Assembly: GCA_963769425.1 (NCBI GenBank)
Contig: CAVYLP010000004.1
Span: 352,494-416,493, forward strand
Source of the DNA: Candidatus Bathyarchaeota archaeon
GTDB taxonomy: Archaea; Thermoproteota; Bathyarchaeia; TCS64
DNA length: 64,000 nucleotides
Reading direction: 5' to 3'
Positions 3,884-61,197 of the stretch are shown here, piece by piece; the stretch's first letter is position 1, and each line of letters starts with the position of its first letter. The position numbers were made by a program, and so were the translations under genes. Under the pieces are notes generated by a model that did no database searches, was not told the DNA's origin, and saw nothing but the letters and a program-made list of their open reading frames with translations.

Positions 3884-3894
3884 GCAACTTCACC

Positions 3895-5988: not shown

Positions 5989-6007
5989 TGTTGATTAAGA
6001 TTATTTC

Positions 6008-6355: not shown

Positions 6356-6468
6356 TCTCCCTCATCTTATTAACATTAGATTTCTATCTACTCTATCCAA
6401 GTCTATATCATACTTAAGTAATGCTAAATATTTTGATACGAATTCTGTTTCGAAATTCGAAATATTAA

Positions 6469-6783: not shown

Positions 6784-6795
6784 TCACATCAAGAC

Positions 6796-8491: not shown

Positions 8492-8566
8492 ATATATTCA
8501 TCCATCACTAGCAATTGGTTTCTCTTCCTGATATTGAATTATTAACTTTAACATTGTGAAAGTTCT

Positions 8567-8854: not shown

Positions 8855-8856
8855 GT

Positions 8857-9870: not shown

Positions 9871-10367
9871 TCCTTTCTTATCACCTGAGAATGAGGGCTC
9901 CTTAGCCTTTTTAACTAATATTTAGAAAATAGTTATGAGTATTGAGTCGAGTTTGGAAACATTAACAATAAACGAATAAGTGAAAAAACTAAGAAATAGG
10001 TTATGTCGCCTTTTGCTTATTTTCCATATTACTCTTCAGCCATATGGTCCTTACACACTGTGGGCGAGGAACAACTGACATATGTTGAGTCATTTCTCTG
10101 AATTTCTTTGACCAGAGTAACTGTTTTATCCTTTTTGGATTCTTACTTGCTATAGACATATTTCTTAACCTTCTACACTGAGCTAAAACGATTCTCTGAA
10201 AGTATATAACAAATATTCAAGGAGATGAAACGTAAATTGTTTCGAATCCGGATGTTCCTTTTGATTAATGATAATGAAGTTTGTTTAAAAGAGTTTTTTT
10301 GATAAATCTATTGATAAATATAATATGAGTGACAAAGAGCGAGTAAATAGTTTATTTTTTGATATTT

Positions 10368-12574: not shown

Positions 12575-12917
12575 ACTAATTCGTATTTTTTTTAATAGTT
12601 TAGGAAGGGGATCAATAATTTATATAATTTAATGTGATTCTTAATAATATCTTTTAATAAGTAAATTTGTTGAATAGTATTGGAAATAATTTCCTTATTG
12701 ATATTTATTTCTTACTATCTTTTCTTATAACCTTAACGATGATTACTACTAATTCGTATTTTTTTTAATAGTTTAGGAAAGGGATCAATAATTTATATAA
12801 TTTAATGTGATTCTTATAATATCTTTTAATAAGTAAATTTGTTGAATGGTATTGGAAATAATTTCTTTATTAATATTTATTTATTACTATCTTTTCTTAT
12901 AACCTTAACGATGATTA
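12575..12917. repeat. Tandem duplication, 2 x about 173 bp, AT-rich
   Basis: Unit 12575-12747 recurs at 12748-12917 with a few substitutions and one 1-nt indel. It begins 53 nt after the stop of the gvpA-downstream gene. Confidence 0.9.
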
Positions 12918-14510: not shown

Positions 14511-15130
14511 CTAGTTCTATAATTACTATACCTGTAAGTATTGTCCGAGGTCTTAACCTGAAATTAGGTGATACTGTTATGTGAGTGTCAAAAGATGATA
14601 GTAAGGATAATTTGCAGACTAAGTAAACTAGTTAGATATTTTAACCGAGATAATATGTAATAGATATCCAATAGATCACACGCCTTATCTTTCACAGTGT
14701 CATCAATCTAACCATTTAAAAAAATCATTTGATTTCAATCTAAAAAATAGTCTTAACTTCAATACTATACGATATGATACATCGATATACTTTTAAAAAA
14801 CTACATATTCAGATCTGAACGACATTACAGAACGTTAAAAATTCAAAAGTAAAAATTAATCCTCTATCCAACATTTTATTGATAGCTTCTGTCATACTGA
14901 ATGCCTCTACGGCGACTTACCGTTTTTTTCATATATATATATTTATTTTTTTCTACGAGCCTTTTTTTGACTCGCTTAAACAAATTATATTATATTTGTT
15001 TATGCACATCTGCTATTATCTTGTAACCATATGCAGGTTCGTTTTTTAATATGATGAGAATTATAATATCTAAAAGGGATTTTATAAGTTGGTCGTCGAG
15101 GTTTACTTCGATTCGATTTTGTGGATATAA

Positions 15131-15294
15131 CATTAAAGTAATACACCTTCATTGGAGGCAATGTTAAACTTTAGACACGATCTCCAAGTTAAGAAGCCTC
15201 ATCCCAAAAAAAAAAAACATTAACGTAATACACCTTCGTTGTAGGCTATGGTAAACTTTAGCACGCTCTCCACGTTAAGAAACCTGATCCCAAA
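15131..15294. repeat. Direct repeat, 2 x about 77 bp with about 87-bp period
   Basis: 15131-15207 and 15218-15294 align with roughly 80% identity by eye. They are separated by an A-run. Confidence 0.8.
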
Positions 15295-16958: not shown

Positions 16959-17303
16959 CTAACCAATTATCGCCTGGATTTGTTCCTGCAACCTCGTAAC
17001 GTTTGCCATAAGTTGCTGCAACATGGTCCCCTGAGTTTCGATGAGTATGCTCTGGGCCTGAAGTTGTGCGGCTTGAGCTTGAATCTGTACATCTTGGGCC
17101 TGAATCTGTGCATCTTTGGCCAGAAGTTGAGCGTCCTTTGCTTGAAGCAGTGCATCTTTCGCGGTTATCTCCGCGTCTTGGCTCTGAAGTCTGGCTTGAG
17201 AGGCGACGTTTTGATTTTGGATAGATGTTGAGGCAATGATGTATCCTCCAACCAGGCCCCCAGTCAAACAGATTATCGCTAGGATATAGAGTTTCGAATC
17301 CAT
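16959..17303 (-). CDS. Membrane-anchored coiled-coil protein with 7-aa (21-nt) tandem repeats
   Basis: 114 aa with an N-terminal TM helix, then AKDALLQ AKDAQLL AKDAQIQ AQDVQIQ AQAAQLQ heptads. Overlapping ORFs in other frames are repeat shadows. Confidence 0.55.
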   Translation of the reverse strand: MDSKLYILAIICLTGGLVGGYIIASTSIQNQNVASQARLQSQDAEITAKDALLQAKDAQLLAKDAQIQAQDVQIQAQAAQLQAQSILIETQGTMLQQLMANVTRLQEQIQAIIG

Positions 17304-33906: not shown

Positions 33907-36900
33907 TTACTTTTTAAGGTGTAGGGTTTTTCCTTCTAGATTTATTCTATTTCCCACTAGCATTTTCTCCAGCTCCGTTTCGAGTATTTTGTTGGTTTTA
34001 GGTGTCTGTCTGGCCCTGAAGGCGTTCGCGGTTTCCTGTATGAGGGATTCGCGGCTTAGACCTAAGGAGTGGCTTAGGACGTGCAGCATCATCGTCTCTA
34101 TCTCCTCTGAGGGTATGTATTCGATTGGCCTGACCTCGGCTTCGGGCCCGTTTAGGGGCACCCTCATCTTGACCGTTATGACCCCCATGGGCCATAGGTA
34201 GTCTCCGCGTTTTTCGAGTTTGCCTTTTTTTGTCATTTCCTCGACGGTTGCCCAGTACGCTTTGTGGAAGGAGGGTGGTGCTGGCTTCAGGTTCATGGCT
34301 TTGTTTAGGCGTTTGAATGCGTACTCAAGGTGTATGGGGCCCTCTACGCGGACAAGTTTGGGTAGAAGGTTTCGGATTTCGAGGAGGTAGAGGTCAAGGT
34401 AGAGTTCCCTCTGGCTAGGGGGGATCGAGTTGAAGGTCTGGCTTGATTCAAGGGATGCCCTCCGGTAGGGTTCCGACCCGGGGAGTTCATCGCTTCTTCT
34501 CTCGGTTACCTTTTCGTATTCGATGCCTTTTTTCGGAGTGGTTCCTTTGATTTGGATTTTCTCGTGGCCTTTTTCGTGTGTTTCAGCCTGCTTTAGTGCT
34601 TGTGCGAGGCGCTCCACTTCGGTGGCTCGTCTGTAGACCCACTCTGGGGACCAGATTCTGTGTAAATCCCAGCCCATTCCCTCAAGTACCTGGGCTCTGA
34701 GTCTATCCCTATCCCTCGTGGTGGCTGTTGACCAGTAGCTCTCTCCATCGAGTATGACGCCTAGAATGAATCTGTGGAGGTTCTCCGGGGTCTTTACGCC
34801 GATGTCTACTCTCAGCGAGCTTTCCCCTATTTGTGGGATCGCTACATACCCGAGTTTCCGGATCTCTTCTGCGACATCTTTCTGTATTTCCGGTAGGTTT
34901 GTCGACTCCTCATTTGGCAACTCCGGTGTTTTGGATGCCTGCTCTACATAGGTCATGTAGTCGTGCAGACACTTCACGCCGACGGATTTGGTCGTGGATA
35001 GGTCTATTTCGCTTGACTTGAAGGAGCTGACGAGTATTACTTTCTCGCGTGCCCTTGTCACGGCGACGTTTAGCCGGCGCTCCCCTCCATCCATGTTCAG
35101 CGGGCCAAAGTTCATGGTCATGACTCCTCCTTTGTCGTAGCCGTACCCGACGCTGATGACTATGACGTCTCTCTCATCGCCCTGAATATTTTCAAGGTTC
35201 TTGACGAAGAAGCCTCTGAGGCGATCCTCGTGGAGTAGATTCTTGTATTCAGGGTTCTGGGCTAGGCGGGCCTCGATTTCATCTTTGACGGTGTTCATCT
35301 GGCTTATGCTGAAGGTCATGACGCCGAGGGATTTCTCAGGGTGCTCTGTGAGATGTTTGAATACGATATCCGCTACTACCACAGCTTCCTTCGGGTTGTT
35401 ACGTGCGCCTCCTCGGTCGTAGACTCCATCCGGCACGTAGGTGAACTCTAACCCGAGCTCGCCTCCTTTATTGGCAGCGGGTGGGAAGGTGATGAGTTTG
35501 TTATCGTAGAACTCCTTGTTTGAGAAAGCTATGAGTGAGTCGTGCTTGCTCCTATAGTGCCAGCGTAGCATGCTGACGGGTAGTCCCATACCCATGCACT
35601 CGTCTAGTACGCTGTCGTATACCCCCACTTCTTGGGTTGCTTCTTCCCACTCAGTGTCGTTTTCGGCGATGTACTGGAAGAATGGAGTTGGAGGTAGTTG
35701 CTTGTTGTCGCCTGCCACTATCAGGGTGTCACCCCTGTATATGGATCCAACCGCGTCCTCGGTGAAGATCTGGGAGGCCTCGTCGAAGACGACGAGGTCG
35801 AAGTGTAGTCGTTCGGGAAGTATGAACTGGCTCACTGATATTGGGCTCATCAGGAGGCAGGGCTTTAGTCTCCTGATGAGGTTGGGTACTCTGTTGAACA
35901 GTTGGCGGAGTGGCATCTGTCTTCGCTTCTTGGCCGCTTCCTTGAGGAGAATGTTGATCTCCGAATCTGGGGCGTCGACGAAGACTCCTTGAGGTTTTTT
36001 TGCGTTTGCTGCTTCGATGACCTTTTTAGGTGACCTCTCTATCAAAGCGGAGTCGAGGGATCTGAAGTCATCGACGACTTGGTCCTGGTCTTTGGCCCTG
36101 AAGGAGCCTAGGGTCGCGTCCTCTTCCGCGAAGTAGTTTATGAGGCCGCTGTAAATTGATTTCTTGTAGACATCGATTAGAATCTCTCTGCGGTATCTCT
36201 TCTCGACGAGTTGTTCGACTAGGTTCCTGAGTCCCCCTTCGATGAGTCTAGAGGATGAATTATTGAAGTCTATCCACGCTTGTAGGTCATCTATTCTTTG
36301 GGCGAGTTTCTCCGAGACGAGTAGAACCTCGTCGACGGTGAGGCTCTGGGCTCGTTCTCCCCAAAGGGGGTTGCTGAACCTTGAGTTCAACTCGTTGATC
36401 AGGCTATGTATCTCTCGGAGGTGTTTCTGGGAGTCAAACTTCGGGGGCTCAAGGGTTGGATCTGTGGCGAAGCCGATGACTTCTGCTGTGGGCTTCGTCG
36501 GTAGGGCCTTGAGGAGGGCGCGTGTCCATTCTATTGCAGCTATCACCTTCAGCCAGTTGGTGGAGGTTCCTTGGTAGAGTCCCCCATACGTCTCTCTTAG
36601 CTGGTAGGCTTGTTCGGTCTCCTCTTCCTCGAAGCTTTGTAGTCTTTCAGTCTTCCTGATGTCTAAAAGGAGTGTAAGGAGGGTCTTAGGGTGATCTGAG
36701 GTCAATGTGATGAGGGCGGGCTGAAGGACTTCGTGGAGAGTTTCTAGTCTCTTTTTGAGCTCGGTGGCCCAATCCTTCAGCTCTCTCAGGGGGAGGTTCA
36801 CAAACCTAGTTTTACCGTTTTGGTTCCTCTCTGGAAGGATCACGCGTAACGGTTTCTGCGCTGCTCTCCAGCTTTGCAGCGAAGCGCCTAGGCTTCGGGA

Positions 36901-39444
36901 TAGGGTGAGGAGTTCATCACTTGGCTTTGTGGCTATGCAGAGGTTGTCCCTTGTCAGCTTCGGGGCTCTGGAGGAGTGTATTAGGTGCAGTATCTCTTTG
37001 GCGTTGTTGATTGCTTCTCCAGCGGCCTCTAGGTCGGGGTTTCCGTCCCGATAGTAGGCTCCAAGTCTGCTCTTAGCCTCCTCCTGCTCGGAGGCTACTG
37101 TCTTCTGCAGCTCCTTTAGCTCTAAACCCAATTTGAGATCTTGGAGAACAGTTATTGGGATTTCTCCGGTAATTGTCGCCCTTGATATTTCGTCCCTGAT
37201 ATTGTAGTAACTTGGCCTCAGGTATCTGAGGGGGGATGACCAGGTACCCTCAAGGTAGGTTATTATGGTTGGAAGATCAAGGGACGTAACCTCGTCCCTG
37301 TAAGCAGTGAGTTTTGACTTGAGTTCGTCTCTTTTTAGTCGCTGTGCCTTGGCCTTTTCGAGGTATTTCTCCGTCTGCTCAAGGTCAGCTTTATTGAGCC
37401 AGTTTCTATCAGGTTTGTTGGTACTTTCGCAGAGTTTTGTGATGCGGTGGATTCGTCTTGCCGTAGTGATTGTCAGTGTATCGGTGGGGAGACCCAGGAT
37501 CGTCGAGATCTTTTCTGTTAACTCTCCCCATTTATCTGCGTCTCTTATGGTATGATCTAGGAATTTTATTAGGTCATCGAGGTGTTTTAGGATGTCCTGG
37601 TCGCCCTTGAGATTGGGTTGGAGGAGTTCGGAGGTTTTCTTCCAGGTTTCCTCGACTCTTTCAGCTGTGCCTCTTGGGAGACTCCTGAACCTGCTATCGT
37701 ACCTACTTTCAAGGTCGGCTCTAATCGCCCAGTATTCGCCCCACTTCAGGTTATTTGCTTCAGCTACCTGTTGAACCTTGGTTAGGTCAACGTCTTGGAG
37801 CCAACGCTGTGGTGGGTGGGGGGTGGCTTCTATGATGTTCGCTAGTCTCTGGAGTGTGTCATAGCTTTCGAGGCTCTTCGGTGTATCGAGCCTGAGTTTT
37901 TCACAGTAGTCGTTTGCGTTTGAGTGTAGCTGTTTGGTTGCGTCTATTAGTGAGGTGAGTAAGTTGGTCCACTCATTGCGTACGTCTAATGTGTATGTTG
38001 TTGCTTTGCAGCCATTCCAGGGAAATTCTGCACCTTCTTCTACGACGACCCAGGAGTTTTGGAGGTAGTTGATCTGCTCTTCGAGGCTGAAGATTGTCTT
38101 CTGGTCGAGGGTGCTGAAGCTCGTGTACCCTGATGGGATTAGTGGAAGGGATCCGAGTTTTGCGACCTCGTTTAGGATCTTGTAGGCACTTGTGTTGGAG
38201 GGTTGTCTAGTCTTGTGGAGGGATTCAACGTATGTGTTTAGCTGGTTTCTCCGATGCTTGAGTCGTTCTATTTCCTCCTCGCTCATTCCTTTGCCTGGTT
38301 TCAGGTGCTCTGTTAGGGATCTGCTTAGCTCGTTGATGACCTCTCGCTTGTTTGCTTTGTAGCTGTGTAATTCGAGGCAGTACTCGTCGAGGTTCTTCTC
38401 CTTAAGGCGGTTGTATACTACCTCGAGTGCAGCCATCTTCTCGCTCACGAAGAGGACGCTTCTACCGGCGGCGATGTATTCGGATATTATGTTGGAAATT
38501 GTCTGGCTCTTTCCGGTTCCGGGTGGACCATGCATTACATAGGATTGTCCTCGGAGCGCGTATTGGATGCAGAGTTGCTGGCTGCTGTCGGCGTCCAAGA
38601 TCTGGTACGTTTTGCCTGGGTCCACGATGGCGTCAAGGTCCTCGACCTTGGGTAGGTTTCGTTGGATGAGTCCAATGTTGGAGACTCCTGCTAGGGCCTT
38701 CAGGGTTGGGTGTTCGGTGATGCGTCTTAGGTTGTCCGTCATGTCCTGGTAAATCGCGAGTTTGGCGAAGCTGAATAGGCCAAGGTATACGGTGGGCTCG
38801 ACGGTCCACCCCAGCTCTTTTACGACTGCTTTTATGGTCGCCAGGTAGCTTGACGGGGTCTGTTCCTCTTGCTCCTGGAGGTAGGAGAGGTCCAAGTCGT
38901 GCTCGTATTTCAGTTTGAGTATGAGGGCTGGGTTGACGAGCAGGTCTTCCTCTACTGGAGGTACCCTTATCTGGTATGGTTCACGCGTCGAGTCTCTTGT
39001 GAGCTCGACGGGGGTTAGGAGCAGGGGTGAGATGATCTCCTGGCTGCTATTCTTCTCGGTCCACCTCAGTTGGCCGAATGTTACGTAGAGGATCCGTATT
39101 CCACGTTCAGTGTACTCGGTTTGGGAGCGTCGGCTTAGGTTTCGGAGGGTTCTGTCGAGTTGGTTTGGGTCCGACGACTCTAAGGTGATCTCGTTGCTCT
39201 TGGGTGCCCTCTTTTTTGGTGTTGGCTCACCCGGCATCGTCGTTGGGGGTTGTTGGATCTCCCAGCTTCTCCCCCTTGTGACGAGTCGGCTGTAAACGGC
39301 CTCCATGTCGGGGGAGGTGAGGGTGAGGAGTGAGGTTTTAGTTGGTTGGAGATAGATGGCTTTGTTTCTTTTAGTGAGGTCGATTAGGCGAAGCTTCCAG
39401 TCATCTACGCGTCTGGCTACCCTCTGGGATTCGGGAGATTCCAA
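33907..39444 (-). CDS. Giant SF1 (Upf1/DNA2-like) helicase with DUF4011-like N-terminus, restriction-endonuclease-like domain and DUF3320-like C-terminus
   Basis: 1845 aa. The N-terminus reads WKLRLIDLTKRNKAIY. Walker A is HGPPGTGKSQT (nt 38506-38532). An about 800-aa helical insert follows, then VVFDEASQI, AGDNKQLPPT, RWHYRSKHDSLIAFSN and GDERDVIVIS. A PD-(D/E)xK/Vsr-like block (LRVDIGV...VILDGESYW...GWDLHRIW) lies at about nt 34630-34878, followed by a C-terminal about 185-aa domain. Confidence 0.9.
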   Translation of the reverse strand: MESPESQRVARRVDDWKLRLIDLTKRNKAIYLQPTKTSLLTLTSPDMEAVYSRLVTRGRSWEIQQPPTTMPGEPTPKKRAPKSNEITLESSDPNQLDRTLRNLSRRSQTEYTERGIRILYVTFGQLRWTEKNSSQEIISPLLLTPVELTRDSTREPYQIRVPPVEEDLLVNPALILKLKYEHDLDLSYLQEQEEQTPSSYLATIKAVVKELGWTVEPTVYLGLFSFAKLAIYQDMTDNLRRITEHPTLKALAGVSNIGLIQRNLPKVEDLDAIVDPGKTYQILDADSSQQLCIQYALRGQSYVMHGPPGTGKSQTISNIISEYIAAGRSVLFVSEKMAALEVVYNRLKEKNLDEYCLELHSYKANKREVINELSRSLTEHLKPGKGMSEEEIERLKHRRNQLNTYVESLHKTRQPSNTSAYKILNEVAKLGSLPLIPSGYTSFSTLDQKTIFSLEEQINYLQNSWVVVEEGAEFPWNGCKATTYTLDVRNEWTNLLTSLIDATKQLHSNANDYCEKLRLDTPKSLESYDTLQRLANIIEATPHPPQRWLQDVDLTKVQQVAEANNLKWGEYWAIRADLESRYDSRFRSLPRGTAERVEETWKKTSELLQPNLKGDQDILKHLDDLIKFLDHTIRDADKWGELTEKISTILGLPTDTLTITTARRIHRITKLCESTNKPDRNWLNKADLEQTEKYLEKAKAQRLKRDELKSKLTAYRDEVTSLDLPTIITYLEGTWSSPLRYLRPSYYNIRDEISRATITGEIPITVLQDLKLGLELKELQKTVASEQEEAKSRLGAYYRDGNPDLEAAGEAINNAKEILHLIHSSRAPKLTRDNLCIATKPSDELLTLSRSLGASLQSWRAAQKPLRVILPERNQNGKTRFVNLPLRELKDWATELKKRLETLHEVLQPALITLTSDHPKTLLTLLLDIRKTERLQSFEEEETEQAYQLRETYGGLYQGTSTNWLKVIAAIEWTRALLKALPTKPTAEVIGFATDPTLEPPKFDSQKHLREIHSLINELNSRFSNPLWGERAQSLTVDEVLLVSEKLAQRIDDLQAWIDFNNSSSRLIEGGLRNLVEQLVEKRYRREILIDVYKKSIYSGLINYFAEEDATLGSFRAKDQDQVVDDFRSLDSALIERSPKKVIEAANAKKPQGVFVDAPDSEINILLKEAAKKRRQMPLRQLFNRVPNLIRRLKPCLLMSPISVSQFILPERLHFDLVVFDEASQIFTEDAVGSIYRGDTLIVAGDNKQLPPTPFFQYIAENDTEWEEATQEVGVYDSVLDECMGMGLPVSMLRWHYRSKHDSLIAFSNKEFYDNKLITFPPAANKGGELGLEFTYVPDGVYDRGGARNNPKEAVVVADIVFKHLTEHPEKSLGVMTFSISQMNTVKDEIEARLAQNPEYKNLLHEDRLRGFFVKNLENIQGDERDVIVISVGYGYDKGGVMTMNFGPLNMDGGERRLNVAVTRAREKVILVSSFKSSEIDLSTTKSVGVKCLHDYMTYVEQASKTPELPNEESTNLPEIQKDVAEEIRKLGYVAIPQIGESSLRVDIGVKTPENLHRFILGVILDGESYWSTATTRDRDRLRAQVLEGMGWDLHRIWSPEWVYRRATEVERLAQALKQAETHEKGHEKIQIKGTTPKKGIEYEKVTERRSDELPGSEPYRRASLESSQTFNSIPPSQRELYLDLYLLEIRNLLPKLVRVEGPIHLEYAFKRLNKAMNLKPAPPSFHKAYWATVEEMTKKGKLEKRGDYLWPMGVITVKMRVPLNGPEAEVRPIEYIPSEEIETMMLHVLSHSLGLSRESLIQETANAFRARQTPKTNKILETELEKMLVGNRINLEGKTLHLKK

Positions 39445-39794: not shown

Positions 39795-40361
39795 TTATTC
39801 TCCCAAGAAAAGCAGATCATAATCAGTGAGGGTGGCTCTGATCTTCTCCACGGCCTCATAGACCTGCTCTTCCCTCTTGGCGCCGGTTATCACGAGCTTC
39901 CCCGAGGCGAATACCAGCAGAACTACCTTAGGCTCCGTCATCCTGTAGATGGCGCCGGGGAACTGCTCAGGCTCATACATAACATTGTCCAAGACATCGG
40001 CCATCGTCTCCAGGTCGATCTTGCCGTAGAGGTTCGCTGAGGCGACCATGTTCTGGATTACTATCTTCGGTTTCCCCAGGATGATGATCCCGTTCGTCTT
40101 CAGCTCTCTGACCACCTTCATCACCGCGCTCCTCGCCTGCTTCTCCGACTTCGCCCCCGTGCAGACCATCTTACCGCTGCCGAATACGAGGGTAGCCGTC
40201 TTCGGTCGCTTTAGCCTGAAGACTAGTCCGGGGAATTGCTTCGGCCGGTACTCCACGTTCTTAAAGACCTTCATGATGTCGAGGAGGTTTATCTTTTGGT
40301 CGAGGGTCACCGAGGCGACGACGTTCTGTATCTTCGTTTCGTATGGGCTTGGTTTGCTTAT
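39795..40361 (-). CDS. tbp: TATA-box-binding protein (TBP), probably with a non-canonical ATA start
   Basis: Two TBP repeats are present (EYRPKQFPGLVFRL...SGKMVCTGAKS and MYEPEQFPGAIYRM...SGKLVITGAKR). The tracked ORF starts at GTG 40310, but the conserved first strand KIQNVVASV is encoded in frame upstream of it. Confidence 0.88.
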   Translation of the reverse strand: MSKPSPYETKIQNVVASVTLDQKINLLDIMKVFKNVEYRPKQFPGLVFRLKRPKTATLVFGSGKMVCTGAKSEKQARSAVMKVVRELKTNGIIILGKPKIVIQNMVASANLYGKIDLETMADVLDNVMYEPEQFPGAIYRMTEPKVVLLVFASGKLVITGAKREEQVYEAVEKIRATLTDYDLLFLGE

Positions 40362-41816: not shown

Positions 41817-42293
41817 TCAGAGCTCTAGACTACGCGAGGACTCCACGTTTACGGCGTTCAATCCCTCAGATGAAGCCGCATCTATCAACCGGTTGTCGGC
41901 CCCTAAAAATAGGTTGCATCCGACCCTTTTCCCCGCGGAGATCTGGAGTGCGTCAGCCTCGTAGATGTGATACTTGACAACATACGTCCATGATTGAGCG
42001 AGCTCCTCGGAAGATACGGGGAGCACCTCGAGGTAGCCCAATCTGCTGAGCTTCAACGTCTCGGAAACCAGGTCCGATCGGGCGTTCGCGAACTCCTTCT
42101 CGGAGATTAGCTTTCTTGTGAGGTATCTGTCGAATGCTCCGATCACTTCGCCTATGTTCCAGAGTGAGAATGCTAAGTGTATCTCTCCAGCCTCGGACTT
42201 GCTGTAAGCACTGTCTACGTAGTCTGAGCCCCTCTCCTCCAGGTACCTCTTCACGATGCAGCTACTGTCTAGGTACACTAGCTGCTCTTTCAT
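41817..42293 (-). CDS. vapC: PIN-domain toxin (VapC-like)
   Basis: 158 aa with VYLDSSCIVK, EADALQISAG and ADNRLIDAA acidic-residue segments typical of PIN domains. Confidence 0.8.
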   Translation of the reverse strand: MKEQLVYLDSSCIVKRYLEERGSDYVDSAYSKSEAGEIHLAFSLWNIGEVIGAFDRYLTRKLISEKEFANARSDLVSETLKLSRLGYLEVLPVSSEELAQSWTYVVKYHIYEADALQISAGKRVGCNLFLGADNRLIDAASSEGLNAVNVESSRSLEL

Positions 42294-42794: not shown

Positions 42795-43170
42795 TCAGAT
42801 AAATCCTAGCCTGCCGAGATGTTTCTCATCATTCGAATAGATTTTTGTAATTCCTAGGCGCTCCATTATCGCAAGGTTTACGGCGTCAAATCCACTCGCT
42901 GGGCCGCCATGAAGTTTGAGTCCATGATGAGGTCGTCTGAGTCGAAGCTGGTTACCGAAGATTGATGGATAGGATAGTATCTTCTCCAGCGTCTCTTTGA
43001 TGTCCCCCTGCCTACCCATAGCCTCCAAGACCCACGCAACCTCACAGAGAACGAGTGTCGAGGTCGCAGCCTCCTTCCCCGACTCGATCTCTCGAGGATG
43101 GTGGTCGATGTTTATTTCGAATCGGGGGTGTGGCCACGTAGATGAAGATGTTTGTGTCTATGAAAAGCAT
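42795..43170 (-). pseudogene. vapC: Frameshifted PIN-domain (vapC) gene
   Basis: ATG at 43170 gives MLFIDTNIFIYVATP. The reading frame then shifts at the G5/C5 run 43124-43128 into ...PRFEINIDHHPREIESGKEAATSTLVLCEVAWVLEAMGRQ..., which continues as ORF 42795..43028. Confidence 0.7.
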
Positions 43171-43409
43171 CCGTTAGTCCCTTCCAGCGCTTTTCTGGCA
43201 GCGTGTATTCGAGCAAGTGCTTTGAGGTTGCCTACGGGCTCTGTGACTCTCACGCTGCCGAGTAGGGACTCGGTCGGTTTAGTGTATCTCTTGATGGGTA
43301 TGAGTATTATTTATCCTCCTCTTTCCCTAACTCTGATTCGAGTCTTTTCCTCGATCTCCTTTTTTTCCCTTATTTCCTTGGGGAGTAAGATTCGACCCTC
43401 TTTTCCCAT
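43158..43409 (-). pseudogene. vapB: AbrB/SpoVT-type vapB antitoxin with in-frame TAA
   Basis: The sequence reads MGKEGRILLPKEIREK...VRERGG-TAA(43311-43313)-IILIPIKRYTKP...ARKALEG. It is 84 codons in one frame, interrupted at codon 33. Its stop overlaps the vapC ATG. Confidence 0.65.
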
Positions 43410-43523
43410 TTCGACATACGTTTGAATTTATTTAGAAAACGATGATATTTACCATTAATAAATTTATTCGACATTTATTCCTCCGAAGTAGAGAATATCT
43501 AATTATAGATACAATCCCGCGCG

Positions 43524-44185
43524 GATACCTGCCACTAGGAACCGGATTCCTACTAGGATGGTATCTCGCGCACCTGTGGGTAGGAATCCCATTCCTAGTA
43601 GGGTGGAACCGCGGAGTGCTCACCACGACCCCTCCATACCTGCCACTAGGAATCTGATTCCTAGTAGGGTGGTATCCCGGAAATTCGTCACTTTTTGCAC
43701 CTGCCACTAGGAATCATCATCTTTGTACAAGTTGATCCGATAGCGGGATCAAATGATCCTGCCACTGGATCAGTTGATCCCACTAGGGGGGTATACGCTG
43801 ATCCAAGTAGCTGTATCATATGATCCAGTAGGGGGGTACAGGTGTACACGATCTCCTGTCCATCTGATCCCAGTAGGTGGGGATCCAATTCCCAGTAGGT
43901 GGGATCGGTGTACCCAGTAGGGGGGTATAACGTTTTTTAAGCGTGTTTGATCCAAGTAGGATGGATCAGTGGTACCTAGTAGTAGGGTGCTTGGTACCAA
44001 GTAGGAGGGTACCGTCGGTACCCAGTAGCATGGTACCGGTGCTCGGATTTCGTGCATCTTGGTACCGTGTAGCTGGGAACTCGGTACCATGTGGCGTGGA
44101 TTATGGTACCCTGTAGGGTGGTTCGGGGTACCCATGTAGGGTGGTATAAGGTTTTTTCATCGCGTCGGTACCATGTAGCAGGTAC
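43524..44185. repeat. Array of more than 20 short hairpin/iteron units with conserved (A/T)GTAGG or CACTAGG core
   Basis: Units have the form G(G)WWCC-N1-2-AGTAGG-N2-3-GGWWC(C), for example tgatccAAGTAGGatggatca, gatcccAGTAGGtggggatc and ggtaccAAGTAGGagggtacc. GTAG cores at 43807, 43828, 43873, 43895, 43917, 43956, 43982, 44001, 44025, 44069, 44091, 44113, 44136 and 44175 give a 21-24 bp period. Three blocks use ATACC/ATTCC, GATCC and GGTACC stems respectively. T6 tracts lie at 43933-43938 and 44152-44157. Confidence 0.85.
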
Positions 44186-44370
44186 AACGTCTTCGATACA
44201 TCTTTTTACTCTTCCCAATGGAAATAGGTCTTTGATTGGCGAGAACTGCTAGGGTTTCAAAGCTATATGCGAGTAGGTCGGGTTCCTGCCTGTTTAGCTA
44301 GGAAGCTATCTCCAGGAGCCGTATATAGGTCCTGTAGGGGCTCCCTATATACTGCGGATACTGAGAAAGG

Positions 44371-44841
44371 TTACGCCTTGAGGTAATGGATCATCAGCTG
44401 ATTGTATTTGCTGGTTAACCGGAACATATCTAATCTTTCAGCGAGATTACGCCTTGAGACAAGGTCCCTAACCCTCGCGGCTAATACGTTGAAGGAAGAG
44501 AGGTTCTGCGACTTCACGCAGCACTCGTCGGCGCCGACCTTGAGCGCCCTCTCCGCGATCATGTCGTCGTCGTGGCAGGTGAATAATACGAAGGGCGCCT
44601 TGTATCCATCGCTCCTCAGCTTCTTACAGAGCTCCACACCGTTCATCTGGGGCATCTGGTAGTCGCTTACGACGCAGTCGAATTGTCTGTCTCTGAGGAG
44701 TTCAAGTGCCTTATCCGCGGAGTTGGCATTCTCGAAGCTGAAGTTCTCGTCCTCTCGGCTTAAGGATAGGTTGATTAGTTCTAGCTGTCCAGGGTCGTCG
44801 TCGACTAGTAGGACTCGTATAGCCTTGTTTGTCTGGCTCAT
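44371..44841 (-). CDS. Stand-alone CheY-like response-regulator receiver
   Basis: The pattern is IRVLLVDDD...FDCVVSDYQMPQMNGVEL...PFVLFT...ADECCVKS. The start is taken at the internal ATG 44841 (MSQTNKAIRV); the tracked ORF extends to 44898. Confidence 0.8.
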   Translation of the reverse strand: MSQTNKAIRVLLVDDDPGQLELINLSLSREDENFSFENANSADKALELLRDRQFDCVVSDYQMPQMNGVELCKKLRSDGYKAPFVLFTCHDDDMIAERALKVGADECCVKSQNLSSFNVLAARVRDLVSRRNLAERLDMFRLTSKYNQLMIHYLKA

Positions 44842-45061
44842 CCCCCCAAGATTGGGAATCGCGGAATATAATACACTAAGCATTTTTCGCTGGTGCATTC
44901 AAAATTAGTGATTCTCATTCCTCTGTGCTCATGGGCGATAATTGAAAGCGGAGCGTTGAGGGTACAGGAGGGCAAAGATGATGAGGCTGCGCGCATGCTG
45001 TCGTATAGCCACTTGGCTTAAGCATTCAAGCAGAGGATACGACATAAATCAATCGATGGGT

Positions 45062-45457
45062 TCACCATGAGTCAACACGGAGCCCTTCGACCCTTTCAAA
45101 GTGCTTCCGGTTAGATGTGACGATTCCCTCGCCGTGGGTTAAGGCAAGGCTTGCGATCATGGCGTCGAGGTCCCCGATTGGGGCTCCTCGTAGTCCCTCG
45201 CTCGCCATCAGTCTACCGTAGCGTTCGGAGGCTTCGACCGTGAAGCTTAACATCTCGAGGAAGCTTAGGGTCGTCTTCACCTTGTGAAGCTCCTTCTCCC
45301 TCTTTGTTGACCTGTAGGCTCCTTTGAACAATTCGCATGCAGTGATGGGGGTCGTAGTCAGCCTCGTCTCTGAGGCGGTGTATTCCTCGAGCTTGGCGAG
45401 CGCTCTCTCATCTCGCCTTATCAAGGCGATGATGAAGCTCGTGTCCAGACACACCAT
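45062..45457 (-). CDS. vapC: PIN-domain toxin VapC
   Basis: 131 aa with the pattern MVCLDTSFIIALIR...ACELFKG...GDLDAMIASLAL...IVTSNRKHF. Confidence 0.9.
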   Translation of the reverse strand: MVCLDTSFIIALIRRDERALAKLEEYTASETRLTTTPITACELFKGAYRSTKREKELHKVKTTLSFLEMLSFTVEASERYGRLMASEGLRGAPIGDLDAMIASLALTHGEGIVTSNRKHFERVEGLRVDSW

Positions 45458-46377: not shown

Positions 46378-47673
46378 ATGTATGGAAACCTATGTATAAT
46401 AGTTTTTATCTTCACAAATATGATAAAGATGGTTTCAAAATTGATTTTTATCAAGAGTAAAGTGATAGTCGACTCAAATGGAGTCAGGGAAGGGCAAAAT
46501 GTTTTGATCGATGGGGACACCATCAAGGAGGTCGGCGAGGGGTTGACTCCACCGAGTGGAGCACAGGTCATCGACGCCTCTGCCCAGATTCTGATGCCGG
46601 GTATGATCGATTGTCATGTCCACTTCAGCGGATCAGTCACTGGAGGCATACAGAAGTTCACCGAGAGTTTTGAGGTTCGACTCATCAGGTCGGCTACCTT
46701 GGAGGCACGAGCCTTGTTGATGGCCGGCTTCACATCAGTGATGGACGCAGGCGGCTTGGTTGGATTCCATGTGAGAAACGCAATCGAGGAGGGTGTTGTC
46801 CCTGGTCCGAGGGTGATGGCCGCCGGTAGATACATAGGGATAACAGGCGGTCACGGTGATACCCACTATCTTCCCCTTGAGTGGGTTAAGGAGGGTAGGC
46901 CATTCGGCTGGGGGATGGATGGAAGGATCGCGGACGGAGTCGATGAATGTGTTCGAGCGGTTAGGGAGCAGCTCAGGGAGGGGGTTGACTTCATAAAGAT
47001 ACTGACAAGCGGCGGAGGGGGGAGCCTTCGTGACCCACCTTGGGTGCCCGAGTATAGCTATGAGGAGATCAAGGCGATGGTTGACGAGGCCCACAGTTGG
47101 GGGCGGCGGGTGATGGCCCATTGCTATAACCCAGAGGCGATTAAGCGTTCAGTTGAGGGTGGGGTGGACATCATCGCGCATGGAAACATGGCTAACGAGG
47201 ATTCGATTAGATTAATGAGGGGTAGGAATGTGACGGTTGTCCCCACGATGTCGATCTACCAGGCCATTGCTGACAGGATCTCCTTGGGTGGCAGTCATCC
47301 GGGGGGTAATGTGACTGGTGGCTTATACTCCACGTTGTATGAGGATGTGAAGCGGTTATACGATGGGGGTTTGAACTTGGCTCTGGGGACTGACACTATG
47401 GGTGATCCGCTTCCATTCGGTAAGGATGCGAGGGAGCTTCAGCTCTACGTTGAGAAGGTTGGCCTCTCACCGCTCTCGGCGATTAAAATCGGTACCTTGA
47501 ATGGGGCAAAGGTGATGGGTAGAGGCGACTTGGGTTTGATTGAGGCGGGGATGAAGGCGGACATAATCGCGCTTGAAAGAAACCCTATTGAAGATATCCG
47601 CTGCCTACAGGACGAGGATAATGTTAAACTCGTGATTAAGGGTGGGATCGTCTATAAGAATGGTCTTCTTTGA
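46378..47673 (+). CDS. Metal-dependent amidohydrolase-family enzyme
   Basis: 431-aa ORF with PGMIDCHVHF, further His/Asp metal ligands and a GTD motif. The true start is probably an internal ATG near 46420-46429. Confidence 0.85.
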   Translation: MYGNLCIIVFIFTNMIKMVSKLIFIKSKVIVDSNGVREGQNVLIDGDTIKEVGEGLTPPSGAQVIDASAQILMPGMIDCHVHFSGSVTGGIQKFTESFEVRLIRSATLEARALLMAGFTSVMDAGGLVGFHVRNAIEEGVVPGPRVMAAGRYIGITGGHGDTHYLPLEWVKEGRPFGWGMDGRIADGVDECVRAVREQLREGVDFIKILTSGGGGSLRDPPWVPEYSYEEIKAMVDEAHSWGRRVMAHCYNPEAIKRSVEGGVDIIAHGNMANEDSIRLMRGRNVTVVPTMSIYQAIADRISLGGSHPGGNVTGGLYSTLYEDVKRLYDGGLNLALGTDTMGDPLPFGKDARELQLYVEKVGLSPLSAIKIGTLNGAKVMGRGDLGLIEAGMKADIIALERNPIEDIRCLQDEDNVKLVIKGGIVYKNGLL

Positions 47674-55420: not shown

Positions 55421-56413
55421 TTGAGAGTCACTCTTCTGAGCATGGGGGAAGTCTCCGATCTTGACAGGATCCTCTTCTGGTCCTCGTACCTTACAGCCGA
55501 GGAGAAGATGCACTTCGATGTTATGAACGTCGATTTCATGAGTGATTATTTCTGGGCCCCCGAGTTCAGGGACTTCGTGGAGAGGTTGACTGTGGACGCT
55601 CCGAGTCTCATCTTCCTCGTTGGGCTCCAGGGATCAGGTAAAACGAGCGCCCTTAGGGCGATTGAGGATTACCTCTCCGGGAAAGCAGAGGCTTATTACT
55701 GGAGATGGCACCGTGAGCTACCGCAGCCCTGGGAGGAGATCAAACACCGTCGGTTCTTCCTTGTGGACCTCCCCGATTACAGGACGGGATCCAGCAGCAG
55801 GATGGCCAGGGACCTGGACGGGATCGATAAACTCTGGTACGATATGCGGTACGGTGAGGATTATGGTAAGAAGCACCTCATCGTGGCGGTTCAGAAGGAG
55901 ATGTTCAGGGGCCACTATCTGTTTGGTAAGGGACAGGTATTCTGGTTGAGGCCGCTTAGATCGGATGAGCTCTTGACTTTCTACTGGAGGAGGTTTGGCT
56001 CGGGTTATCCGTTTAGCAGGGATTCTCTGACTTTGGTTGCGGTGCTGAGTCGCGGGGTCTTCAGGCGATTCATACGTTACATTCGCCTCTGCTTGCAGGA
56101 TATGAAGGGCAGTGGAGTTGAGTCGGTGAACGTGGATGATGTGAGGAGGGTGATCAGCCTCGACGTCGTCGCGGGGGACATGGACCTGGAGCTGTCGGGT
56201 CTGCTGCGGGGAGCGGAGAAGGGGTACGCCGTTGCGGTGATCTCGGCGCTGATGAGGGTGGGGGAGATGAATCAGAAGGACCTCTCGCTTCGCCTCGGCG
56301 TGTCGGAGACGATTATGAGTCGGCTCTTGGGTAAGCTGGAGGGTCTAGGATACGTTAAGAGGGTGCATGGGGATAGGAAGGAGCTCAGGGTCTCGCTTAG
56401 TAACGTCACATAG
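55421..56413 (+). CDS. AAA+/P-loop ATPase with C-terminal MarR/ArsR-like wHTH (minimal Orc1/Cdc6-like architecture)
   Basis: 330 aa with Walker A GLQGSGKTS, Walker B-like FFLVDLPD and a lid-like LRPLRSDELLTFYWRRFG. The C-terminal wHTH reads NQKDLSLRLGVSETIMSRLLGKLEGLGYVKRV. Confidence 0.7.
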   Translation: MRVTLLSMGEVSDLDRILFWSSYLTAEEKMHFDVMNVDFMSDYFWAPEFRDFVERLTVDAPSLIFLVGLQGSGKTSALRAIEDYLSGKAEAYYWRWHRELPQPWEEIKHRRFFLVDLPDYRTGSSSRMARDLDGIDKLWYDMRYGEDYGKKHLIVAVQKEMFRGHYLFGKGQVFWLRPLRSDELLTFYWRRFGSGYPFSRDSLTLVAVLSRGVFRRFIRYIRLCLQDMKGSGVESVNVDDVRRVISLDVVAGDMDLELSGLLRGAEKGYAVAVISALMRVGEMNQKDLSLRLGVSETIMSRLLGKLEGLGYVKRVHGDRKELRVSLSNVT

Positions 56414-56648
56414 AGCCTATTATTGAAAAATGTGTGTTTAATCGGGTTTATAACATCTTGTTATGAATTATCTTTTGAGTTCGCGTGCGCGACATCGATT
56501 GCTTCGGTGAAGTCGTTTAGCATTGCTGTTCTTTTCTTCCATTTGGGGCTTATGGTTTAATTATCAATGACTTTTAGTCGTTGGTGGCTTAAGCGAGTTC
56601 ATTCAATGTCTTTTCGGGGGCTCATCTTGAGTCTTCCTGGTTCGGAGG

Positions 56649-56995
56649 TTAATCAATTAGGGTGCGGGGTTCTACCCTCTTGAGTCCGGGTATCCTGTCG
56701 AAGACGTGATCCGTGGATATGATGGTGTGGTCCTCCACTTGGTTGAGTGTAGTTGCGGCGTGGAAGGCGTCGAATATGGAGCTTAAGCCATTCTGTCTCA
56801 TCAGGGTCAGTGCTAGGAGGTCGGTCTCTGAGGTCGTCGGGAGGAACTTCAGGTTGGCTATGGATGTTAGTGCCGCGGCTCGTGCTATGTACTCGTCTAG
56901 TGTGACCCCCTCCTTCATAGGACATAGTAGAGTTCGTGGAGGACTTCGCGCGACGCCGCGACTTCTTCCAGCTCGCCCTCCTTGATCCTCCAGAT
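56649..56995 (-). pseudogene. vapC: 5'-truncated, frameshifted PIN-domain gene
   Basis: One frame reads EPIWRIKEGELEEVAASREVLHELYYVL-stop. The next frame continues MKEGVTLDEYIA...FDAFHAATTL...IISTDHVFDRIPGL. The N-terminal strand with the first catalytic Asp is missing. The upstream frame is closed by a TAG inside the repeat element. Confidence 0.6.
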
Positions 56996-57240
56996 GGGTT
57001 CCTAGTAGGATAGGATAACAATTTTCCACGCACCTGTGCCCGTTGGGATGGTGGAGCATTCACCTTGCCATGGACCGATTCCTAGTAGAGTGGAATCACA
57101 AGGCGATCTGCAATAACCCTGATACCTGCCACTTGGAATCAGATTCCTACTAGTGTGGTATAGCACACTAGCTGGCTGGGCGTATGTGCCTCGCTAGTAG
57201 GGATAAGGAAAAACACCACTTTTTGCACCTGCCACTAGGT
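56996..57240. repeat. Second copy of the hairpin-repeat module (homologous to about 43550-43712)
   Basis: Shares gcacctgtg, gattccTAGTAG(G/A)gtggaa and gataccTGCCACT(A/T)GGaatc.gattccTA(G/C)TAG(G/T)gtggtat with the first locus. It also has an identical 23-mer cactttttgcacctgccactagg (57217-57239 versus 43689-43711). Confidence 0.8.
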
Positions 57241-57452
57241 ATAGTTGTTTCGGAGGAGGCTCTAAGGTGAAGGTCTACCAGATCCCCGAGGCATCATCCG
57301 GGCGGGTTGCTTTGACTGTTGAGTTGTAGAGAAGGCTCAAGAATTCGAAGTATAGGCAGGTTATTCGTACTAAGATGCTATTAATTCAAGTAAATCGAAT
57401 CCACCTTGATCACTATGAGTTACCATTCAACGAGTTGGTGGTAGTTTATTCG

Positions 57453-58353: not shown

Positions 58354-58998
58354 TATATTTCCCTAGGGAAATATAATGTTAAGTAGTTTTTAAGCCTTCC
58401 CAAGTCATCATATGGAAACACTTCGTACCAGGCATCTACCAGGGGTGCATGAACATGACATACTTCTCATTCACACCAAATATACTGCAGGCCAGGAAGT
58501 TGAAGGACGTGATAGTATTCATCTATGACACTTTCAGGTTCGAAATCTGGCTGGCGGGGCACAATAGCGTCGAAGACAAGTACTGGGCGCTGTTCAGGGA
58601 AAGCGGCTGGGATAAGTACTGGGTCGTACAATTTCCATCTCTTTAATCCAATATTATTGATCTCCTCTTGATAGCGGTCAGGGGTTTCCCACTCTAGGCC
58701 TTCTCTCTCGATGTAGAGAAGAGCCTTGGCCGATGCGCGCGCAGTAGTTTGCAGGTTGCGAGTGGTTGGGGGTAGGTGAATGTGCCCCGTATATTGTATG
58801 CATAAATATGCGGTGCGCGTGTCCCCATGTGCAGGGTATAGCCTTATGCTCACTTCCACCTGATACTAATCCATACTTTTATAATTGAGTTTTCTGTGCA
58901 ACTCAGCGATAGAAAGATGCATGTGTGCATGGTTTATTAGCCATAAAATTTGCGCATTACTTGCTTTGCAGGTAATCTACTCCTAAGGAGTAGGAAGG

Positions 58999-59073
58999 TG
59001 GAGCCGGGCGAAGGATTTGAACCTCCGTGCACTGCTTTGCAGGCAGTTGCCTAATCCACTCAGCCAACCCGGC
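58999..59073 (-). tRNA. tRNA-Cys: tRNA-Cys (anticodon GCA) with genomically encoded CCA
   Basis: Manual cloverleaf. Acceptor GCCGGGT/GCCCGGC; D-arm GCTG-AGTGGATT-AGGC; anticodon arm ACTGC-CTGCAAA-GCAGT; variable loop GCAC; T-arm GGAGG-TTCAAAT-CCTTC; discriminator U, then CCA. Confidence 0.92.
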
Positions 59074-59851: not shown

Positions 59852-60122
59852 GTGGAGGGTGATCAGCCTCGACGTCATCATGGTGGACATGGATCTTGAG
59901 CTGTCGGGTTTCCTGAGGGGATCGGAGAAGGGTTATGCTGTCGCCGTGATCTCGGCGCTGATGGGGTAGGGTGAGATGAATCAGAAGGACCTCGCGAATC
60001 GCCTCGGCGTCTCTGAGACTATTATGAGTCGACTGATGGGTAAGATGGAGGGAATAGGCTATGTCAGGAGGGTGCGCGGGGACCGGAAGGAATTACGGGT
60101 CTCGCTGGTTAATGATACCTAG
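59852..60122 (+). pseudogene. Fragment paralogous to the wHTH C-terminus of ORF 55421..56413
   Basis: Aligns to 56143-56413 at roughly 80% nt identity by eye (RVISLDV...GEMNQKDLANRLGVSETIMSRLMGKMEGIGYVRRV). It has an in-frame TAG at 59967-59969 where the full copy has GTG. No N-terminal ATPase part is present. Confidence 0.75.
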
Positions 60123-60445
60123 GCGCGCGCGACCCGTTGGAGAGCCGATGACTATCAGAACGAAGGGGATTAGTAGGAAAGCGTTGTGTAGCATCGCCCG
60201 GTTTAATGTATAGAACACCTCGAGGTGGTCGACAGTTTGCACCTGCGTCAGCGGTGTCAGGGTGTGATGATCCAGTTGATGTATTTTCGGTTGTAGAACG
60301 CGAGGAGCGCGATCCCGGGTACGATCAGGTGCAGCAGGAGGTCAGCTAAGGTTTTTCACCGAAGGTAGCCGGTGAGGAATTCTAGAATGTTAAGTTAAAG
60401 GAATTAGGGTAATCTGTTATGATCTAAATTAGGATTAATCTTATT

Positions 60446-61197
60446 TTATTTAATCACTTCGATGAAGTCGTTTAACATTGTTGTCCTTCTCTTCCATTCA
60501 TTAATTGTTTGAAATTCTTGCCTCCAATTCTCTAGTCCTTGCTGCTTGATTTCCTCTTGATAGCGGTCAGGTGTTTCCCACTCTAGGCCTTCTCTCTCGA
60601 TATAGTGGGGAGTCTTAGCCGATGACCAGAGTTTCATTGGCCACTGTGTGTAGAAGCCGAACTCGTTAACATGTTTCTGTTTTAGGATCATTGTCGCCAG
60701 TTGTGGTGTCATTATCCACGTTATTCCGAGGACGTCGAGGGTGTTTTTGAAGCCGAGGGCCTTCGATGAGACTAAGTTTCCTATTCCCTCAGTTAGCCTC
60801 TGTGTCTCAGGGTGCGTGTCGAAGGCTCGCTTCGTCCTCCCGATGAGTGTGAAGTCGTTTTCATGAGGCGTTTCGGTTATCTGCTTGAGTTCATCCGGGT
60901 AGCTCCTCATCCAATGGAGGGCTCGGTCTAGGTCGCAGTAGAATAATGTTTCTAAATCAGGAACTAGGGCCCTCTTCAAGGCTGTTTGATAGGTGTTGAT
61001 TACTGTGTTCCCTGCTTTGGAGACCTTGTATCCTTTCTTTACGAGGAGTCTGATGGTGTCGGGATTGGTCCTCGTGGTATAGGCTATGTCGCCGATTCAA
61101 ACAGATCTCTTATTGGGTCACCGACTTCCTCGATTAGGTATCCTAGTCGGTTCTCTGGGTCGTGGATGGTCGAGGTGAAGGCTAGAATAAGCGTCAC
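60446..61197 (-). pseudogene. Frameshifted hypothetical gene (family with FTSTIHDPENRLGY N-terminus)
   Basis: The tracked ORF 60446..60979 continues upstream in frame (IGDIAYTTRTNPDTIRLLVKKGYKV...) to a TGA. A second frame (GTG 61197: TLILAFTSTIHDPENRLGYLIEEVGDPIRDLFE) abuts it near 61095. Confidence 0.5.

Follow-up and report, generated by a model that had tools for sequence, protein, structure and literature searches.

Hairpin-forming repeat units at two loci of a Bathyarchaeota genome: possible REP/BIME-like palindromic repeat DNA

Iteron arrays such as those of F sopC, R6K and the lambda origin keep the whole site constant and lie beside rep or par genes. Repetitive extragenic palindromic (REP) sequences are defined by a conserved GTAG (or CGTC) tetranucleotide at the end or tail of the palindrome; they are typically found between co-directional genes, and head-to-tail runs of them are rare (PMC3733652). 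The closest published arrays with variable palindromic stems and conserved loop motifs are those of the tandem interspaced guide RNA (TIGR)-Tas systems (PMC12045711), in which each unit has a pair of variable spacers of 8-12 nt with box C/D motifs on either side and the array adjoins the gene for a Nop-domain Tas protein. The repeats of type III toxin-antitoxin (TA) systems are 34-45 nt long, occur in 2-5.5 copies, and stand immediately upstream of a gene for a ToxN/AbiQ-family endoRNase that runs in the same direction (PMC3401426). Here we describe a 660-base non-coding stretch of Candidatus Bathyarchaeota archaeon (locus A, positions 43524-44185) that is built from short hairpin-forming units and lies in a 64,000-nucleotide piece of contig CAVYLP010000004.1, which we call the window and to which all positions refer. 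Searches of the literature yielded no report of an archaeal array of this kind.

The basic unit of locus A is 21-22 nt long and has the form arm-(N)(A/T)GTAG(G/C)NN-arm', in which two complementary arms of about 6 nt enclose a centre of 7-9 nt that carries (A/T)GTAG(G/C) or, in oppositely oriented units, GTGGCA. Units are arranged in two ways, either as an inverted dimer that forms a 44-nt long hairpin or as a head-to-tail run, and the GTAG lies in the hairpin loop of the simple units and in an internal loop of the composite ones. The motif [ACT]GTAG[GC] occurs 15 times on the plus strand of locus A and once on the minus strand, and exact AGTAGG occurs nine times. Orientation is not strictly uniform, with at least 5-6 minus-strand units bearing the GTGGCA core. 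Within a block the left arms are near-invariant (GGTACC ten times, TGATCC eight times) and many right arms are degenerate. The composite units are about 80-90% identical among themselves and contain no variable spacers, and the loops, at 7-9 nt, are near-constant. Because the ends of block 2 and block 3 (Table 1) are about 86% identical (GTACCC..GTAGGG.GGTATAA.GTTTTTT), the array appears also to have been enlarged by higher-order duplication.

An earlier note on this DNA, made from its letters alone, had described an array of more than 20 units here. That array is real: locus A can be divided into about 24 slots of 20-25 nt and a few linkers of 16-23 nt, and a covariance model recovers about 20 units. 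The coordinates given in that note were all correct, including T6 tracts at 43933-43938 and 44152-44157 and a TATA-like aattataga at 43501-43509. The spacing of cores had been put at 21-24 bp or about twice that; the periodicity stands, with a wider measured range of 18-26 bp or 39-48 bp.

The hairpin potential of the array is very significant. Perfect stems of at least 5 bp surround 6 of the 15 strict cores in the array, where 0.3 were expected; outside the arrays they surround 2 of 92, which is the chance rate (0.021, the background for such a stem around any 6-mer). The mean contiguous stem was 4.05 bp within units against 3.25 bp when partners were permuted across units, and the observed mean was reached in 204 of 20000 permutations (p about 0.01); at random genomic positions it was 2.03 bp. 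In an alignment of 18 units, on which the covariance model was also built, 75% of cells were paired as against 68% in shuffles (9/500), and the covariation score was 0.272 as against 0.186 (7/500), while registers slid by 1-3 columns gave at most 60% paired. The comparison with shuffles for which the earlier note had called thus places stem covariation above the controls, as a real but modest effect. That note had also spoken of stems that change while remaining self-complementary. Six complementary arm types bear this out (GATACC/GGTATC, GATTCC/GGAATC, TGATCC/GGATCA, GATCCC/GGGATC, TACCC/GGGTA and GGTACC/GGTACC), but it does not extend to the whole array, as only about half of the units (about 12-13) are good hairpins with stems of at least 5 bp and about half have poor stems.

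With the covariance model of the 21-nt unit, all matches with E<0.3 in the 64 kb were confined to locus A and to a second locus, 13 kb away, at 56997-57242. This locus B is a second copy, roughly 80% identical, of the first block of locus A. It carries the same 44-nt composite unit, the unit and tail segments that the two loci share are about 80-90% identical, and a 23-nt tail, CACTTTTTGCACCTGCCACTAGG, is identical in both. Since locus B has unit and tail together, block 1 of locus A can be taken as one copy of a repeated element, here termed element E, of about 190-250 nt with three long hairpins and a T-rich linker, present in at least two copies. The minus-strand matches of the covariance model lie at 43523-43543, 43753-43772, 57120-57140 and 57224-57243. 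Because the model matches the minus strand where TGCCAC stands, TGCCAC is the reverse complement of the variant core GTGGCA, and the nested 44-nt units are therefore inverted dimers of the simple unit. Such dimers are found in element E and at 43754-43797. The nested units of the earlier note are present, bounded here at 43524-43568 and 43630-43679, but it had missed both their nature as inverted dimers and the second locus, as well as the likeness to REP/BIME repeats and to TIGR stem-loop arrays.

The boundaries of the copies fall at hairpin tips. Homology between the two loci begins, in locus B, at the apex of a hairpin of the U1 type (Table 1) and ends at the apex of one of the U4 type; in locus A it stops at 43714, which is the same apex. 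When the ends of locus B are joined they give a full composite unit (36/41 matches), and locus B is exactly one circularly permuted higher-order unit bounded by hairpin tips. Its left junction truncates a PIN gene, and the promoter-proximal part seen in locus A is missing from it. A diverged second copy argues against locus A being an assembly artefact.

We tentatively read the array, with less than even confidence, as lineage-specific palindromic repeat DNA that resembles REP sequences, bacterial interspersed mosaic elements (BIMEs) and REP doublets forming hairpins (REPINs) and that is spreading and expanding at the DNA level. We infer both the extrusion of hairpins in vivo and the mode of spread. 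Single-stranded DNA of the units, or RNA if they are transcribed, would fold into hairpins, and the folding itself would be what is propagated, whether through selection acting on the element, hairpin-templated correction or a trans-acting enzyme. Hairpin tips would be the sites where copies are cut and rejoined. Locus A would have been extended by serial tandem duplication of the 3' half-unit of element E and of modules consisting of the last unit and T6, giving rise to blocks with separately homogenised arms. No sequence-specific service to the cell would be needed, and an effect on termination or on mRNA ends would be incidental.

The REP/BIME-like reading is supported by several observations. 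The six arm types stay complementary; the composite units are inverted dimers, and a second copy stands beside non-homologous genes; and both the ends of locus B and the end of element E fall at hairpin apexes. Both loci lie between co-directional genes, the usual position of REPs (PMC3733652). The surroundings are strain-specific islands with decayed TA genes, and the units are absent from three relatives. Many units are degenerate and the blocks are internally homogenised, as in tandem repeat DNA, and we found neither an Rfam family nor a strand-specific G-U signal. Other observations weigh against this reading. In REPs the GTAG stands at the foot of the palindrome, but here it is within the loop or internal loop, and blocks 2 and 3 are head-to-tail runs of the kind that is rare for REPs (PMC3733652). 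Only two copies are seen in the 64-kb window, where neither the core and stem scan nor the covariance model found single dispersed units beyond chance elsewhere, and the Pfam-scanned open reading frames (ORFs) of the window include no Y1/HUH transposase or other mobilising enzyme. The compensated arm changes around an invariant asymmetric core look like the outcome of selection on a folded, protein-recognised structure, and the T5-6 tracts at block ends on the plus strand only, with a TATA-like box upstream, fit a transcription unit.

If the REP/BIME-like reading is true, Bathyarchaeia would have in this array a clear instance of a palindromic repeat family. Its build would be unusual, with a constant loop, a variable stem and copies cut at hairpin tips, and it would suggest that this uncultured archaeal lineage possesses some activity for mobilising the repeats or processing hairpins. 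At present the array is an orphan, known from one genome and lying in a decaying island, with no associated protein, and its importance therefore hinges on further copies or transcripts.

The earlier note had suggested a sponge or decoy RNA, and a hairpin-array non-coding RNA is an alternative that we consider somewhat unlikely. The plus strand would be transcribed from the TATA-like box near 43501, and partial stops at the T5/T6 tracts would yield RNAs of about 165, 405 and 625 nt, with many AGUAGG-loop hairpins that titrate either a protein that binds RNA or an RNase such as a PIN/VapC nuclease, by a logic analogous to that of CsrB or of type III antitoxin RNAs. Variable but complementary stems around a constant loop are what such an RNA would have, and the suggestion agrees with the T tracts and the TATA-like box: runs of at least five T number four on the plus strand of locus A and none on the minus strand, they lie at block ends, the T5 is retained in both copies of element E, and the TATA-like element is similar to promoter-like boxes that precede genes of the window. 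The predicted fold is also more stable on the plus strand (-290 kcal/mol, against -254 kcal/mol for the minus strand), and each copy stands divergently 5' of a PIN/vapBC locus, the two PIN/vapBC loci being unrelated. The loops contain GGUG/GGGG, reportedly the sites of Pyrobaculum VapCs. Where the two strands are compared at the level of the unit, however, the suggestion gains little, as the stem mismatches show no strand bias (G-U against A-C, 5 vs 3) and the predicted exposure of the core is 0.42 on the plus strand against 0.65 for its complement on the minus strand. The global fold is ambiguous because GGTACC is self-complementary. Stems are poor in half of the units, the blocks leave no space between them for promoters of their own, and locus B lacks the promoter-proximal part and adjoins a truncated gene. 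Both neighbouring toxin genes are dead, which leaves nothing to antagonise, and no co-directional toxin gene follows downstream; the relatives examined show no conservation and Rfam gives no match. A more specific version, in which element E and the expanded array encode a vapBC-linked hairpin-array RNA, would make it an archaeal analogue of CsrB or ToxI whose AGUAGG(G/U)GG loops serve as decoy or sponge for PIN-domain RNases or another RNA-binding protein. We think this quite unlikely; it would explain why two independent copies stand divergently upstream of two unrelated vapBC/PIN loci. Were the RNA reading true, archaea would have their first multi-hairpin RNA acting as a protein sponge or decoy, and RNA and PIN-domain toxins would be newly linked.

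Two explanations at the level of DNA seem less probable still than an RNA. In a DNA iteron platform, the left arm and core (G[GA]T[AT]CC-N-AGTAGG-NN-GG) would bind many copies of one protein, so as to form a partition site, an origin of plasmid or virus type, or the silencing platform of a mobile element now integrated and decaying. The period of 21-24 bp, which is two helical turns, the far better conservation of left arm and core than of the right arm within blocks, and the AT-rich 100 bp at the left flank of locus A could all be accounted for in this way, as could the location in a strain-specific island with TA modules and winged helix-turn-helix (wHTH) genes nearby, as on plasmids. The arms, however, differ between blocks yet remain complementary, something that a single duplex-reading protein would neither need nor tolerate; because they change while the non-palindromic core stays fixed, a single DNA-binding protein is unlikely to be the reader. 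Inverted dimers with a different core also occur, and the number of sites, more than 20, is far above that of usual origins. Genes for Rep, Par or Orc1/Cdc6 are missing from the window, the cumulative GC skew climbs steadily across 43-45 kb with no inflection, and no similar array was found in plasmid or phage collections. We judge the platform very improbable. As put forward in the earlier note, the iteron, centromere or origin idea gained nothing beyond the period of about 22 bp, and the AAA+-wHTH protein named there (55421..56413) is not Orc1/Cdc6. A functionless minisatellite, immobile and drifting, could have arisen by replication slippage from a palindromic operator-like site near the vapBC promoter. 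This would suit the degenerate units, the block-wise homogenisation, the decayed surroundings and the absence from relatives, but it leaves unexplained a second copy 13 kb away beside non-homologous genes, compensated arm changes commoner than in shuffles, and a core kept across blocks and both loci, and we regard it as improbable.

The array appears to be restricted in its distribution. The host is of Bathyarchaeia type, to which the best named matches of its amidohydrolase point, and it has a TBP gene (Table 1). In three relatives, in which the amidohydrolase is 81-86% identical and the gene order upstream is different, the segment with vapBC, receiver gene and array is absent, as is any unit. 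The closest homologue of the receiver gene (62% identity) has no array downstream, and an exact look-up of the PIN protein returned one 1.1-kb contig that does not extend to the array. Within the window only a tRNA-Cys passes the Rfam gathering threshold, the best match in either locus having E=0.57. A strict pattern of the 44-nt composite unit had 0 matches in 596 Gb of genomes, JGI metagenomes and IMG/VR. Looser patterns (AGTAGGNNGG x3 and ACCTGCCACT x2) gave nothing related among the 240 loci listed, and because unrelated tandem repeats swamped these looser patterns, absence is shown for the strict pattern only. Other patterns run against viral contigs gave chance matches only, and blastn against plasmid and phage collections gave no match.

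Some arrays of other origin came up among the matches listed. Contigs of an unrelated bacterial metagenome-assembled genome and of Arthrospira (1150-1550 and 500-1000, both on the minus strand) have 22-24-nt tandem arrays whose units, CCCCAAAAGTAGGGGGG and CCCAACAGAGTAGGTTGGG, fold as small hairpins with AGTAGG at the border of loop and stem. This likeness is probably a coincidence, since the search pattern selected for AGTAGG. On a viral contig (100-450), about ten direct TAGGTACC iterons lie upstream of an AT-rich stretch, an origin-like arrangement that is unrelated to the array.

Further identities were considered for the array and rejected. A mimic of the 16S rRNA 3' end (helix 45/anti-Shine-Dalgarno) is not indicated, as a generic archaeal tail aligns no better here than elsewhere in the window; nor is a decoy of restriction or methylation sites (GGTACC, GATC, CTAG), as the remainder of the window shows no avoidance of them. 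The repeats do not appear to code for protein, as the period is not a multiple of 3, a 91-aa ORF has no homologue, and a 121-aa ORF has one weak low-complexity match among 1.84 billion representatives. The overlapping minus-strand ORFs have translations without relatives and are artefacts, as the earlier note had taken them to be. Segmental duplication of a module of vapBC and element E is contradicted by the dissimilarity of the PIN remnants at the two loci. For integron attC, CRISPR, retron, k-turn, hammerhead and tRNA fragment, the defining features were absent on inspection and in Rfam and Pfam.

The gene context described in the earlier note holds, with a decayed vapBC on one side of locus A and a receiver gene on the other. 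The vapB start is about 110 nt from U1 and the gene is divergent from the plus strand of the array. An in-frame TAA at 43316-43318 breaks the otherwise well-preserved vapB frame, which suggests that its inactivation is recent. Neither the 42-aa nor the 77-aa presumed PIN fragment has a Pfam match. The genes adjoining the two loci (receiver, vapB, PIN) are all on the minus strand, and the next plus-strand ORF after the array is 1.7 kb off. Each locus is between co-directional genes and 5' of a vapBC/PIN locus. Intact PIN proteins are encoded nearby, at 45062-45457 and 41817-42293. No similarity is detectable between the PIN genes beside locus A and locus B, so element E seems to have been copied independently of its neighbours; the truncated PIN gene has an apparent N-terminus that extends into the initial unit of locus B. 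A nested inverted repeat lies at 44300-44350, just downstream of the receiver gene, GGAGCC..GGCTCC around CCGTATATAGG..CCTATATAC, that holds the core-like motif TGTAGGGG; it may be a further degenerate unit or a 3' structure of the receiver gene.

Both loci are in strain-specific islands with TA genes, gene fragments, decayed paralogues and candidate defence genes. Matches of the 1845-aa protein to two of PADLOC's models for candidate defence systems, PDC-S37 and Hhe (helicase-nuclease), mark the left part of the island as defence-related. The AAA+-wHTH protein near locus B has only generic AAA_16 and MarR/Csa3-type HTH matches. No Rep, Par, Orc1/Cdc6, transposase, integrase or reverse transcriptase was found in the Pfam-scanned ORFs of the window, nor any Cas, Nop/Tas or ToxN-like protein; no scanned ORF of at least 100 aa had a Nop-domain match, and no CsrA was seen in the window. 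Around locus B, the diverged duplicated segments 56145-56543, 58634-58735 and 59854-60624 (81-88% identity) take in the C-terminal wHTH region of the AAA+-wHTH gene as well as the beginning of a 177-aa gene, and their sequences indicate paralogous, partly decayed gene copies. The tRNA-Cys (58999-59073, minus strand), 1.8 kb from locus B, borders a segment absent from relatives and is a possible integration site of the island.

Elsewhere in the window, a gas-vesicle gene cluster at 1964-11081 on the minus strand contains three GvpL/GvpF genes, GvpK, GvpG and an AAA_5 (GvpN-like) ATPase, together with an Hsp70-like protein, Hsp20 and PadR regulators; such a cluster is notable for a Bathyarchaeia-type genome. 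The stretch at 10-16 kb is AT-rich (about 32% GC) and has repeats at 12575-12917 and 15129-15261 that are unrelated to the hairpin units, among them a 172-nt tandem duplication (96% identity) and a 46-nt repeat spaced by 87 nt. At 17055-17159, a 21-nt tandem repeat in five copies (70% matches) lies within a minus-strand ORF (16959-17303) that has no Pfam match.

Table 1. Units of the two repeat loci and genes nearby (window positions)
Feature	Position	Strand	Description
Composite unit U1	43524..43568	+	Inverted dimer folding as 44-nt long hairpin
U1, minus-oriented half	43523-43543	-	GATACC-TGCCACTA-GGAAC; covariance-model match
U1, plus-oriented half	43545-43565	+	GATTCC-TACTAGGAT-GGTATC; covariance-model match
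Composite unit U2, variant	43569..43613	+	Core TAGTAGGGT; stems: outer CACC/GGTG, inner TAGGAAT/ATTCCTA
Composite unit U3	43630..43679	+	Outer stem ATACC/GGTAT; internal loop TGCCA/TAGGGT; inner stem of 9 bp, CTAGGAATC/GATTCCTAG
Tail of element E	43680..43714	+	Linker with T5 (43692-43696), then half composite unit GCACCTGCCACTAGGAAT
Block 2	43732..43930	+	TGATCC-type left arms; about nine units, 21-23 nt each
Block 2, minus-oriented unit	43754-43774	-	GTGGCA core
Block 2, irregular piece	43842-43864		23 nt
Linker after block 2	43931..43946	+	T6 at 43933-43938; GTACCCAGTAGGGGGGTATAACGTTTTTT, sharing about 86% identity with the block 3 end
Block 3	43947..44148	+	Eight units: first with TGATCC arm, others with GGTACC arms
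Block 3, interrupting linker	44039-44059		21 nt
Final linker and last unit	44149..44185	+	T6 at 44152-44157; last unit CGGTACCATGTAGCAGGTAC
Locus B	56997..57242	+	Begins with 3' half of U1-type unit
Locus B, U2-type unit	57077-57097		Perfect GATTCC/GGAATC stem
Locus B, U3-type composite	57120-57163		Followed by insertion of about 42 nt
Locus B, T5	57220-57224		Followed by half unit terminating at hairpin apex
1845-aa protein	33907-39444		DUF4011, superfamily-1 helicase, MTES_1575 nuclease and DUF3320
TBP gene	39795-40310
Presumed PIN (vapC) remnants	42795..43170	-	42-aa N-terminal (MLFIDTNIF...) and 77-aa C-terminal fragments in different frames
Decayed vapB	43160..43414	-	MazE/AbrB-type antitoxin; in-frame TAA after codon 32
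Response-regulator receiver gene	44371..44898	-	3' end toward array
Amidohydrolase gene	46378-47673
5'-truncated PIN gene	56649..57059	-	Profile positions 54-119 only

Among known systems, iterons share with this array a build of direct repeats, each about 20 bp long and in helical phase, and some iterons have internal dyad symmetry. The array differs in keeping only a core of 6-10 nt, with arms that co-vary, and the window lacks rep and par genes. The RNA antitoxins of type III systems (ToxI, CptI, TenpI; PMC3401426) also consist of structured tandem direct repeats in a TA neighbourhood with a terminator-like T tract. The units described here, however, are about 22 nt long and number 20 or more, no co-directional gene comes next, there is no ToxN/AbiQ/CptN/TenpN, and the neighbouring toxins are decayed PIN domains on the other strand. 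CsrB and RsmZ resemble the array in their many small hairpins with variable stems, a shared loop motif of 6-7 nt and an end at a U tract. Their motif is GGA, bound by CsrA, whereas the core here is AGTAGG plus a variable base and GGA occurs in few units; the array has no CsrA in the window and no conservation in relatives, and its RNA is putative.

TIGR-Tas arrays share with this one tandem stem-loops, sub-arrays and mobile or defence contexts, and archaea are included among their hosts. They differ from it in that the loops here are constant at 7-9 nt, without spacers, and no Nop-domain gene is found in the window. REP sequences, BIMEs and REPINs differ in having the GTAG at the foot of the stem, where the array has it in the loop. 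The array, moreover, is mostly long head-to-tail runs at two loci without dispersed singletons in 64 kb; no REP-associated tyrosine transposase (RAYT) or Y1 transposase is found in the scanned ORFs of the window; and the host is archaeal. The likeness to these elements (PMC3733652, PMC2817692, PMC3116915) lies in imperfect palindromes of 20-40 nt with a GTAG-containing motif, a size range into which the units of 21-22 nt fall, with arms of about 6 bp and 75% of cells paired. It extends to inverted dimers that give a long hairpin, to clusters with sub-families, and to an intergenic, species-specific and variable occurrence.

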